Source: a virus
DNA: 64,000 nt
Direction: 5' to 3' (one strand)
Virus record (IMG/VR): IMGVR_UViG_3300021387_000118
Span: 141,168 to 205,167 of that record
Shown here: positions 21,755-22,466 of the stretch, piece after piece
How positions within the stretch are numbered: the first letter of the stretch is position 1
How the letters are laid out: each line of letters opens with the position of its first letter
Notes under the pieces: model-generated
Told to the model about the DNA's origin: nothing
Databases searched by the model: none
The model's input: the letters and a program-made list of their open reading frames with translations, nothing else
Made by a program: the position numbers and the translations under genes

Positions 21755-21840
21755 AGTCCTATAGAATAATGGAAGTCGATTTAAACATGTAGTTCATTTC
21801 ATGGTCGGGAGAGGTTCAGGTTCGATTCCTGATAGGATTG
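21755..21840 (+). ncRNA. atypical tRNA-like RNA (copy 1 of a pair)
   Basis: Acceptor AGTCCTA/TAGGATT, D arm GAAT-AATGGAAGTCG-ATTT, T arm TCAGG-TTCGATT-CCTGA. No canonical anticodon arm could be built from the central 33 nt. Confidence 0.4.
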
Positions 21841-21872
21841 TTTAATGTTTTGAAGCGTAGTTTAAATGGTAA

Positions 21873-22002
21873 TATGTGGTGGCGGAATATGTAGACGCTT
21901 ACAAAGGAGTGGATTAGTACGAAAAAAGTAGGAAAGTCCTAAAGAAATGTAACTCCCTAACAAATAGCATTTCATGTAAGGTGAAAATCCTTACCCACAT
22001 AA
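21873..22002 (+). ncRNA. tRNA-Leu-framework RNA with expanded (76-nt) central region (copy 1)
   Basis: Perfect 7-bp acceptor TATGTGG/CCACATA. The type-II D arm TG-GCGG-AATATGTAGA-CGCT closely matches bacterial tRNA-Leu. The T-arm-like hairpin GTAAGG-TGAAAAT-CCTTAC lacks the TTC T-loop. Confidence 0.45.
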
Positions 22003-22037
22003 CTGTTAAAGGGCAATTTGAATTGGACGAGTGATTA

Positions 22038-22175
22038 TGTGAAAAAATACGAATGTCTTGTGAAGCGTGGAACAGTTACGGAAAAAATTATTCGTTACTT
22101 CACGAATTCTAAATATGCTTATGCGTGGCTTGAACTTGAAGGATATCAAGTGTTTTGCATTAAGGAATTGTAACT
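22038..22175 (+). CDS. possible small protein (45 aa, GTG start) between tRNA-like RNAs
   Basis: ORF VKKYECLVKRG...FCIKEL with weak RBS-like ggacgag upstream. May instead be non-coding. Confidence 0.2.
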
Positions 22176-22192
22176 ACATTAAATGGCAACGT

Positions 22193-22378
22193 TATGTGGT
22201 GGCGGAATATGTAGACGCTTAGTGCATTGGGAAACTGGTGCAACACTGAAATTAGGAATCGAATTGCAGTCAGACTAAAAGTAGGTGTATGAAGAGGAGT
22301 ACCGAACGGTAGTATGCAATGAAGTCCGTTGGTATATTCAAACTTCCTCATGTAAGGTGAAAATCCTTACCCGCATAA
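22193..22378 (+). ncRNA. tRNA-Leu-framework RNA with expanded (about 135-nt) central region (copy 2)
   Basis: Same 5' end TATGTGGTGGCGGAATATGTAGACGCTTA and the same 3' hairpin GTAAGGTGAAAATCCTTAC plus acceptor CCGCATA (one T-G wobble). The central domain differs from copy 1 but shares AAAGTAGG and GGAGT blocks. Confidence 0.45.
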
Positions 22379-22380
22379 TT

Positions 22381-22466
22381 GATCCTATAGAATAACGGAA
22401 GTCGATTTAAGCTAGTAGTTCACTCCATGGTTAGGAGAGGTTCTGGTTCAACTCCAGATGGGATCG
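22381..22466 (+). ncRNA. atypical tRNA-like RNA (copy 2 of the pair)
   Basis: Acceptor GATCCTA/TGGGATC, D arm identical to the 21755 copy, T arm TCTGG-TTCAACT-CCAGA. The central region differs at 7 positions from copy 1. Confidence 0.4.

Follow-up and report, generated by a model that had tools for sequence, protein, structure and literature searches.

A family of tRNA-like RNAs in a phage RNA island

We analysed a 64,000-nucleotide (nt) stretch of viral DNA (positions 141,168 to 205,167 of IMG/VR record IMGVR_UViG_3300021387_000118; hereafter the window), in which a gene for a protein with a predicted Ro60 fold is followed by an island of canonical tRNAs and tRNA-like RNAs. Our main subject is two of the latter, A1 (21755-21840) and A2 (22381-22466), both on the + strand. 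An earlier note on this DNA had pointed to paired tRNA-like RNAs at these positions, and comparison of the two copies bore this out, their identity being 83% over 92 nt (21751-21842 versus 22377-22468). That they are a functional "pair", as had been supposed, is not supported; the homologues described below identify them as two paralogues of one conserved phage family of tRNA-derived non-coding RNAs, the A family.

In A1, the acceptor stem AGUCCUA/UAGGAUU (21755-21761/21833-21839) has 7 base pairs (bp), one of them G-U. It is followed by U8 and A9, by a D stem GAAU (21764-21767)/GUUC (21792-21795) enclosing a 24-nt D loop (21768-21791), and by A26. Next come an anticodon-position stem UUUC (21797-21800)/GGAG (21808-21811) with the loop AUGGUCG, which contains GUC, the variable loop AGGU, the T arm (21816-21832) and a discriminator G at 21840. 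A2 has the acceptor GAUCCUA/UGGGAUC, also of 7 bp with one U-G, and the anticodon-position arm CUCC-AUGGUUA-GGAG, with GUU in the loop. That the acceptors differ and yet pair in each copy had already been noticed and is correct, pair 1-72 being A-U in A1 and G-C in A2; the T arms seen in both copies are likewise confirmed as canonical.

Homologues were collected by exact-pattern scans with the conserved core, using as key an exact 17-nt sequence (17-mer) of an insert in the D loop, and were then filtered. The family comprises at least 21 distinct sequences from phage (IMG/VR) and metagenome contigs. A covariance model built from six of them (R1) gave 53-114 bits to members of the family (101.8 for A1 and 108.9 for A2) and at most 33 bits to ordinary tRNAs. 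The Rfam tRNA model (gathering threshold 29 bits) did not match A1 or A2, even at E≤5. The wider Rfam comparison proposed in the earlier note, run at the gathering thresholds and at E≤5, returned nothing at A1, A2 or the elements B1, B2, H, E1 and E2 described below, and no match to the YrlA model at A1, A2 or element C. Neither ARAGORN nor Rfam found a transfer-messenger RNA (tmRNA; a tRNA-Ala-like domain plus tag frame) in the window. A match to the FMN model at 22343-22491 was discarded as noise (22.6 bits against a threshold of 66).

ARAGORN called A1 a "tRNA-Cys(aca)". We rejected this assignment, as the anticodon stem it implies was 60% paired and had no covariation. Across the family its labels (Cys, Ser, Asn or Tyr) track a variable hexamer in the D loop, the start of which is taken for the anticodon (ACA, GCU, GUU or GUA). 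Such RNAs, missed by Rfam and mislabelled by ARAGORN, constitute an annotation blind spot. Cultured phages (INPHARED) gave matches to canonical tRNAs only and none to the A RNAs, and the 120 matches listed for the 17-mer in species-representative genomes were all chance occurrences without tRNA-like context. The literature search brought up no paper with the insert sequence. The A family is thus absent from Rfam 15, from cultured phages and from the literature searched for its insert, and we found no description of it.

We tested the fold by covariation on the 21 distinct aligned sequences, whose mean column identity is 75%. In the acceptor, D and T stems together, 99.1% of the cells were paired and double changes were observed in 13 of the 16 pairs; none of 500 shuffles reached the observed score, and no slid register came near it. 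The acceptor (98% of cells paired) and the T stem (100%) accounted for double changes in 11 of their 12 pairs. The D stem is made by positions 10-13 with four bases 24 nt downstream. It was paired in 100% of the cells, with two pairs doubly changed, and occurs as GAAU/GUUC, GCGU/GCGC, GUGU/ACAC, GCAC/GUGC, GUAU/GUAC, GUUU/GAAC and GUUC/GGAU. The D arm drawn in the earlier note, GAAT-AATGGAAGTCG-ATTT, was wrong. Among the 21 homologues GAAU/AUUU was 78.6% paired and had no compensatory changes, because AUUU is constant while GAAU varies; GAAU/GUUC is supported instead.

In the family, the D stem is followed by one nucleotide and then by an anticodon-position stem of 4-5 bp. Pair 27-43 of this stem is C-G (U-G in A1), pairs 28-42 (UA/CG/GC), 29-41 (CG/GC/AU) and 30-40 (CG/AU/GU/UA) co-vary, and 31-39 is usually mismatched. 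The variable loop has 4 nt (AGGU or AGAU), and the covariation supports a 7/5 acceptor/T branch with this loop. Taken together, the covariation indicates that the A RNAs fold as a full cloverleaf. A1 and A2 had been thought to lack anticodon arms, their 33-nt centre being unable to form one; that centre in fact comprises the remainder of the D loop and a stem of 4-5 bp, which co-varies and has a 6-7 nt loop with GUC or GUU. Two features of canonical tRNAs fail in A1 and A2. The first is a D loop of 7-11 nt, in place of which they have a 4-bp stem and a 24-nt loop. The second is a 5-bp anticodon stem with a 7-nt loop and U33, where they have 4 bp plus a mismatch and, with a 5-nt 5′ strand, the loops UGGUC and UGGUU. 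The window copies are one or two 3′ loop bases short, and their GUC or GUU stands one position off the canonical 7-nt register.

Relatives differ in their content of A RNAs. Locus L489, with flanks 97% identical, lacks A1, A2, tRNA-Met and tRNA-Leu, and L492 keeps tRNA-Met and an A RNA. As both copies are missing from L489, the A RNAs are accessory modules, and the island as a whole is accessory and modular. Absence from a close relative and weak folding z-scores (−0.4 and −0.7) would also suit decaying pseudo-tRNAs or inert tRNA-like processing signals, and the other RNAs of the island would need RNase P/Z sites for their release. The TMERs of murine gammaherpesvirus 68 (MHV68) and tRNA punctuation resemble the A RNAs in this respect, being viral non-aminoacylated tRNA-like units that may provide RNase P/Z signals in a polycistronic non-coding RNA array. 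However, MHV68 is a eukaryotic virus and its TMERs have microRNA cargo, whereas here the tRNA-like units themselves hold conserved extra sequence. Every helix of the A RNAs has compensatory changes, the tertiary nucleotides are invariant, and the insert is kept in 21 diverged sequences from many samples. Decay is largely refuted by this covariation, since an alignment with the mean identity given above does not consist of very recent copies. We consider decaying or inert elements very improbable. The earlier expectation of functional non-coding RNAs rather than decaying pseudo-tRNAs is supported by the homologues in many contigs and their compensatory pairs.

tRNA-Asp/Asn ancestry and the D-loop insert

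All 21 A sequences have G73 and G10. Because every member also keeps U8, A14, A15 (with U48), G18G19, A21 and the T loop UUCRAYU, the tertiary core of a real tRNA is preserved. The anticodon-position loop contains GUC in 16 and GUU in 5 of the 21 sequences, always as bases 3-5 after the 5′ strand of the stem. G73, G34, U35, C36 and C38 are strong determinants of aspartate identity (PMC9976931). C38 is found only in L217, L012 and L014, and the window copies are without it. The loop of L217, CUGUCAC, is identical to that of E. coli tRNA-Asp, other canonical loops in the family being AUGUCGU and UUGUCUA. G73 is common to tRNA-Asn(GUU), and a non-discriminating aspartyl-tRNA synthetase (AspRS) charges both tRNAs (PMC9976931). 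With GUC in A1, GUU in A2 and the shared G73, A1 is therefore Asp-like and A2 Asn-like, and on these retained nucleotides we concluded that the A family is a tRNA-Asp/Asn derivative.

The A RNAs share with bacterial and phage tRNA-Asp(GUC) and tRNA-Asn(GUU) the 7/5 acceptor-T domain, the core nucleotides, G10, the T loop UUCRAYU, G73, the GUC or GUU and the location in tRNA arrays. They differ from these tRNAs in the D loop, which has 24 nt including a 17-nt insert (normally 7-11 nt), and in the anticodon-position arm, with its usual 4-bp stem, 31-39 mismatch, loop of 4-8 nt and frequent G at position 33. They also have no Rfam tRNA match and coexist with canonical tRNA-Asp and tRNA-Asn. In L206 and L276 the A RNA is immediately preceded by a canonical tRNA-Asp(GUC), which L277 has as well; canonical tRNA-Asp and/or tRNA-Asn often occur in the same arrays as an A RNA. 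Recent duplication of a neighbouring tRNA-Asp was rejected as the origin of the A RNA, as the sequences are too different. Allo-tRNAs (8/4, 9/3) and tRNA-Sec (8/5; PMC5389517) are similarly odd cloverleaves found in metagenomes and phages. The A RNAs, by comparison, have the standard 7/5 branch without an 8/4, 9/3, 8/5 or 9/4 branch or a long variable arm, and their oddity is the D loop. We observed a single divergent variant, at 8628-8718 of L306 and 69 nt downstream of a Ro60-like gene; its D loop of 28 nt differs in sequence, and its anticodon loop is CUUUAAA (UUA as in an ochre suppressor).

A tRNA derivative of this kind could be a genuine decoder, A1 reading Asp codons (GUC) and A2 Asn codons (GUU), with the insert as an added handle, for example against a host tRNA-targeting defence or for recruiting a phage factor. 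The L-shape nucleotides, G73, G10 and GUY (Y, pyrimidine) are retained, the A RNAs stand in tRNA arrays 2-3 nt from neighbouring tRNAs, and several members have 7-nt U33 loops (CUGUCAC, AUGUCGU and UUGUCUA). However, the window copies have the 4-bp stem with GUC or GUU one position out of register, and canonical tRNA-Asp and tRNA-Asn are co-resident with the A RNA. In the family as a whole, position 33 is G in 13 of the 21 sequences, the loop ranges from 4 to 8 nt (counting the 5′ strand as 5 nt), and 31-39 is mostly mismatched. An elbow insert of 17 nt is to our knowledge unprecedented in a ribosomal substrate, which also speaks against decoding. On balance we regard decoding as a serious but unlikely alternative.

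The D loop of the A RNAs reads A14 A15 Y G18 G19 A, then AGUCGAUUUAA, the hexamer and A21, the insert being 17 nt long. The insert 17-mer (AAYGGAAGUCGAUUUAA) is invariant in the collected set as a necessary result of its use as search key, to which the hexamer did not belong. In A1 the hexamer is ACAUGU (21785-21790; alignment columns 32-37), preceded by AA and followed by A; that of A2 is GCUAGU (22411-22416). Eight variants were found, namely ACAUGU, GCUAGU, GCAUGU, GUUAAC, GUAUAC, CAUAUG, GUGCAU and ACAUGG. For pairs 1-6, 2-5 and 3-4, 98.4% of the cells were self-complementary, double changes were seen in all three, and no shuffle of the 21 sequences reached the score. Mutual information gave no other partner column for the hexamer. 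A pseudoknot with the anticodon-position loop, or pairing with the CAUGU of element B, was dismissed as inconsistent across members and without a mutual-information partner.

As bases 3 and 4 of the hexamer are adjacent and cannot pair within one molecule, antiparallel pairing of two RNA copies is the simplest reading. The predicted homoduplexes of the fully self-complementary hexamers have energies of −5.8 to −7.4 kcal/mol. For A1 with itself the value is −6.6 kcal/mol and for A1 with A2 only −0.6, so that the paralogues would not cross-pair. The covariation of the hexamer points to RNA homodimerisation. A search of the 64-kb window for antisense targets of the A D loop, the B inserts, H, E1 and E2 gave chance-level matches only.

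The flanks AA...A are those of the dimerisation initiation site (DIS) loop of HIV-1. The DIS kissing loop is also a self-complementary six-base sequence, whose variants keep complementarity and do not cross-pair. In HIV-1, however, it occupies a small hairpin loop (9 nt), whereas here the putative dimerisation hexamer is inside the D loop of a tRNA-shaped RNA; the resemblance is confined to the hexamer and its flanks. The phi29 packaging RNA (pRNA) is likewise a phage-encoded structured RNA with co-varying intermolecular loop-loop pairing. It differs in using two different complementary loops, forming rings and not being tRNA-shaped, and the A RNAs lie among replication-module genes with no packaging context.

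The palindrome could alternatively act as DNA, as an operator, a recombination or integration site, or a restriction-type site. Its inner four bases are always a DNA palindrome (CATG, CTAG, TTAA, TATA, ATAT or TGCA), the window has integrase-like genes, and modules are shuffled among relatives. But G-U is the outer pair found most often (13 of 21). This favours RNA over DNA, since G..T in these positions pairs only as RNA; the surrounding sequence is, besides, under RNA-helix constraint. A DNA element is accordingly hard to credit.

The Ro60-fold gene, element C and tRNA mimicry

The Ro60-fold gene (19032-20549, + strand) lies 1.2-2 kb upstream of the A RNAs and encodes a 505-aa protein, in which Pfam recognises DUF2828 and DUF7788/von Willebrand factor A (vWA) regions. 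The protein has no sequence match in PDB. Its AlphaFold2 model (mean pLDDT 76.5) gave as top PDB matches the TROVE domain, Ro60, the Ro60 of phage phiLo and Deinococcus Rsr, over the full length, with probability 1.0 and a TM score of about 0.55. Judged from this model, the protein has the Ro60 (TROVE + vWA) fold. The DUF2828 + DUF7788 family has more than 5,800 homologues, and our literature search found no paper linking DUF2828 to RNA. The family is very large and uncharacterised, and the long tRNA-like RNAs that regularly precede its genes widen the Ro60/Y-RNA question in phages.

Directly upstream of the gene are two tRNA-like RNAs (18639-18883, + strand), of 116 and 126 nt with inserts of 54 and 59 nt. 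Among 80 IMG/VR loci of the gene (L289-L368), 69 have tRNA-like elements within 700 nt. As in the window, the usual arrangement is of one to four such gene-adjacent RNAs, 110-135 nt long and with open acceptor ends, which immediately precede the gene in its own orientation. Phages with a Ro60 gene preceded by Y-like RNAs are known (PMC4201824, PMC12135203, PMC7824862). The DUF2828 gene with its upstream tRNA-like RNAs makes a Y-RNA-like arrangement, which we could not find described. We also observed a gene for an Fe-S oxidoreductase/radical-SAM-like protein (PHROG 16999; 17523-18476) immediately upstream of these RNAs, a position kept in L489, L492 and L493.

Element C (22530-22600, + strand) had been described as a third element, with a tetraloop hairpin and the acceptor of the second Ro60-adjacent RNA. 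The description is accurate: the identical acceptor is present at 18758-18883, and C scored 48.7 bits with the Rfam tRNA model. It alone of A1, A2 and C passes the 29-bit threshold, and its D arm is within canonical size. C has the acceptor CGGAACG/CGUUCCG with A73, the D arm GUUU-AAUGGUA-AAAC, a 7-nt variable region and a canonical T arm. At the anticodon site stands the hairpin AGCCG-GUGA-CGGUU, with 5 bp and a GUGA tetraloop. All members of the C family have this acceptor sequence and A73. Their D and T stems co-vary, and their centre varies freely, holding a tetraloop hairpin, long inserts or a nested double form. The last is seen in L489 at 8374-8496, where the outer acceptor is CGGAACG/CGUUCCG, the inner acceptor is UGGAAUC/GAUUUCA closed by AAAUA, and there are two D and two T arms. 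From its fold and family alignment, C is a true tRNA-like RNA without an anticodon arm. It is related to the Ro60-adjacent RNA and belongs to a family distinct from A.

We compared these RNAs with the YrlA Y RNAs. The ends of YrlA RNA reportedly form the Ro60-binding stem, and its tRNA-like domain is said to have a closed acceptor (Chen 2014, Wang 2018). The RNAs of the island resemble YrlA in having a probably non-decoding tRNA-like domain near a Ro60-fold gene, with the anticodon arm replaced in C, and L217 and L489 hold YrlA-topology modules beside A-type and C-type elements. Unlike YrlA RNA, the A and C RNAs terminate in an acceptor stem that is open and co-varies. The only match to the YrlA model (RF02553, threshold 69 bits) was one of 29 bits at 18722-18788, with none at A1, A2 or C. 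The true YrlA topology (T arm, closed acceptor, D arm) was observed only in L217 (2338-2395) and inside L489 8374-8496.

The sequence ACAGCAA(A/C), found with the gene-adjacent RNAs, is also absent from A and C. Five copies are clustered at 18566-18995, a segment that takes in both long tRNA-like RNAs and the beginning of the Ro60-like gene; three of these copies are each part of a hairpin with the closing stem UAGNNGC/GCNNCUA. L217 (at 2448) and L306 have the motif as well. The whole window has 19 copies of ACAGCAA against 7.9 expected, none of them within 21755-23245. The motif may be a candidate protein-binding site.

The A RNAs could be dedicated RNA partners of the phage Ro60-fold (DUF2828) protein, that is, equivalents of Y RNAs whose tRNA-like body tethers the ring to tRNA-binding enzymes or a nuclease. 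The product of the neighbouring gene has the predicted Ro60 fold, the C acceptor is that of a Ro60-adjacent RNA, and phage Ro60 with upstream Y-like RNAs is documented (PMC12135203, PMC4201824). Gene and A RNA occur together in diverged lineages (the window, L012, L217, L234 and L239), that is, in 4 of 23 A-bearing loci plus the window (5/24) against none of 265 background loci, this background differing from the proper control, phage tRNA islands that have no A RNA. In L217 the A RNA is 220 nt upstream of the Ro60-like gene and abuts the YrlA-topology module. On the other hand, there is almost no A RNA among the 80 gene loci. The gene-adjacent RNAs differ in size (110-135 nt), in their anticodon-side insert and in having ACAGCAA, and in L002 an A RNA occurs although its island has no gene of this kind close by. 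A dedicated partnership therefore seems doubtful to us.

Our preferred reading, to which we assign a probability of about 45%, is that the A RNAs are tRNA mimics, serving as scaffolds or decoys, and form an accessory cassette of a phage RNA island around the Ro60-like protein. A mimic is favoured over a decoder because loop size and position 33 vary freely, canonical tRNA-Asp/Asn often adjoin, and close relatives are without the A RNA. In such a scheme, the A RNAs would be transcribed together with the neighbouring tRNAs, RNase P and RNase Z would release them, CCA would be added, and the L shape would be adopted. They would still be recognised through GUY and G73 by proteins that read tRNA-Asp/Asn, the first candidate being a (non-discriminating) AspRS. 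The insert would jut from the elbow and present AA-NNNNNN-A, so that two identical molecules could pair, the A1 and A2 hexamers being non-cross-reacting.

Several observations weigh against mimicry or against parts of it. U33 is present in about 8 of the 21 sequences, and 9 of the 21 have a 7-nt loop with GUC in place; these could decode. Retention of GUY and G73 would also be expected of a working tRNA. The A1 cloverleaf is not the thermodynamic minimum, in line with the weak z-scores given above, and the invariance of the 17-mer, which follows from the search, adds no support. The hexamer duplexes are predicted at a mere −5.8 to −7.4 kcal/mol. The hexamer lies in a 24-nt loop and not in a closed 9-nt hairpin loop, the candidate closing stem GAAU/AUUU failing covariation. 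The 80 loci of the Ro60-like gene contain 1-2 weak A-like matches, and the association of A RNA with this gene may mean only shared residence in phage tRNA islands.

The dimerisation part can be taken further. Palindromic covariation of adjacent bases is satisfiable only between molecules, and it makes a testable prediction of RNA-RNA dimerisation. The A RNAs might then be tRNA-shaped RNAs with a programmable homodimerisation code, in which identical Asp/Asn mimics kiss at their elbows and A1 (ACAUGU) and A2 (GCUAGU) are orthogonal, although we hold this extension to be unlikely. If it is true, a mimic of this dimeric kind could attach to, or link, tRNA-reading proteins that are themselves dimers, and do so with high avidity. 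Candidate partners would be the class IIb synthetases AspRS/AsnRS, Ro60-like rings, or a nuclease or modification enzyme specific for GUN anticodons. The phage would thereby gain a new means of tying up or redirecting some of the tRNA machinery of its host, and the island, with its B, C, H and E1 elements, would make up an array of cassettes for hitherto undescribed non-coding RNAs of phages. Phage tRNA islands are usually read as a supply of tRNAs for codon usage or against host defence; much of this one consists of conserved tRNA-derived RNAs that are not ordinary tRNAs.

Other elements of the island

The canonical tRNA-Gln, tRNA-Met and tRNA-Leu previously placed in the island are all real. 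ARAGORN and Rfam gave tRNA-Gln at 20997-21072 and tRNA-Leu(UAA) at 22839-22926, and tRNA-Met(CAU) at 21679-21752 (Rfam, 69.7 bits) ends 2 nt before A1; all three are on the + strand, as are the elements B1, B2, H, E1 and E2.

A second repeated pair, B1 (21873-22002) and B2 (22193-22378, abutting A2), was overlooked in the earlier note. B1 has a tRNA-Leu-like scaffold with the acceptor UAUGUGG/CCACAUA and A73, the D arm GGCG-GAAUAUGUAGA-CGCU, and a 6-bp T stem with the loop UGAAAAU; in place of anticodon and variable arms it holds an insert of 77 nt. The ends of B2 match those of B1 (29/29 and 32/34 identical) and enclose an unrelated insert of 133 nt, which is 90% conserved in L229. The search for the B family used only motifs inside the element. 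Of its 21 members, 19 have flanking 7-mers that pair at all seven positions, and at least 9 different acceptor sequences occur. The inserts range from 36 to 133 nt. They are unrelated and are swapped even between phages with 97% identical flanks. Thus the B elements of L489 (7738-7850 and 8041-8147) have the same ends and quite different inserts, and the block from the 3′ end of one B element through the open reading frame (ORF) to the 5′ end of the next is 97% identical to that of the window, both inserts being replaced. Phages have several B copies each (L006 at least 3), which as a rule directly adjoin an A element.

The ORF between B1 and B2 encodes a 44-aa protein (VKKYECLVKRGTVTEKIIRYFTNSKYAYAWLELEGYQVFCIKEL) with a GTG start. 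The earlier note had recognised it as a 45-aa GTG ORF at 22038-22175; the ORF stands, its extent being 22039-22173 (+ strand). All five differences from L489 are synonymous third-position changes, which indicates a real gene under purifying selection. Pfam, NCBIfam and PHROGs gave no function for this ORF or for those at 21108-21611 (+ strand) and 23245-23439.

Between A2 and C lies a conserved 62-nt hairpin, H (22468-22529), whose loop is GAAGGCCAA; four of its 13 pairs show compensatory change. In at least 6 loci a copy stands between A-type and C/B-type elements. E1 (22601-22839) is a conserved GC-rich structured RNA of ~235 nt, with 44 predicted pairs of which 10 are compensatory. Its homologues come from four lineages (L489, L239, L229 and L492), and it has no Rfam match. 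E1 contains a conserved block, CGAAUCCUCCUCCUGUUGG, which resembles an anti-Shine-Dalgarno sequence. E2 (22927-23245) is a conserved non-coding stretch with a 3′ motif of ~45 nt (23188-23232), GGAUGUGGU..GGCNAYGCAGACCAACUAACAGUGUCUAGGCR, which shows some covariation. We found this motif also in distant phage loci (L289 745-800, L004 185-234, L359 6429-6475 and L311 12016-12067). GC-richer non-coding sequence had been reported at 22600-22839 and 22926-23245. The GC content is 0.47-0.52 over about 22400-23000 against about 0.35 around it, so the claim holds up to about 23000, and 23000-23245 is not raised. A promoter and terminator scan was uninformative because the counts were at chance level.

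Elsewhere in the window, an IscB-like protein (RRXRR + HNH) is encoded at 50923-52569. Its homologues in L012 (12785-14113) and L257 (1229-2779) lie 0.15-1.2 kb from A elements; this proximity is probably coincidence, because mobile nucleases are common in tRNA islands. A 1,511-aa DNA polymerase ORF (33519-38054) has residues about 570-932 matching ribonucleotide-reductase-like PHROGs, and this segment may be an intein or an inserted domain.

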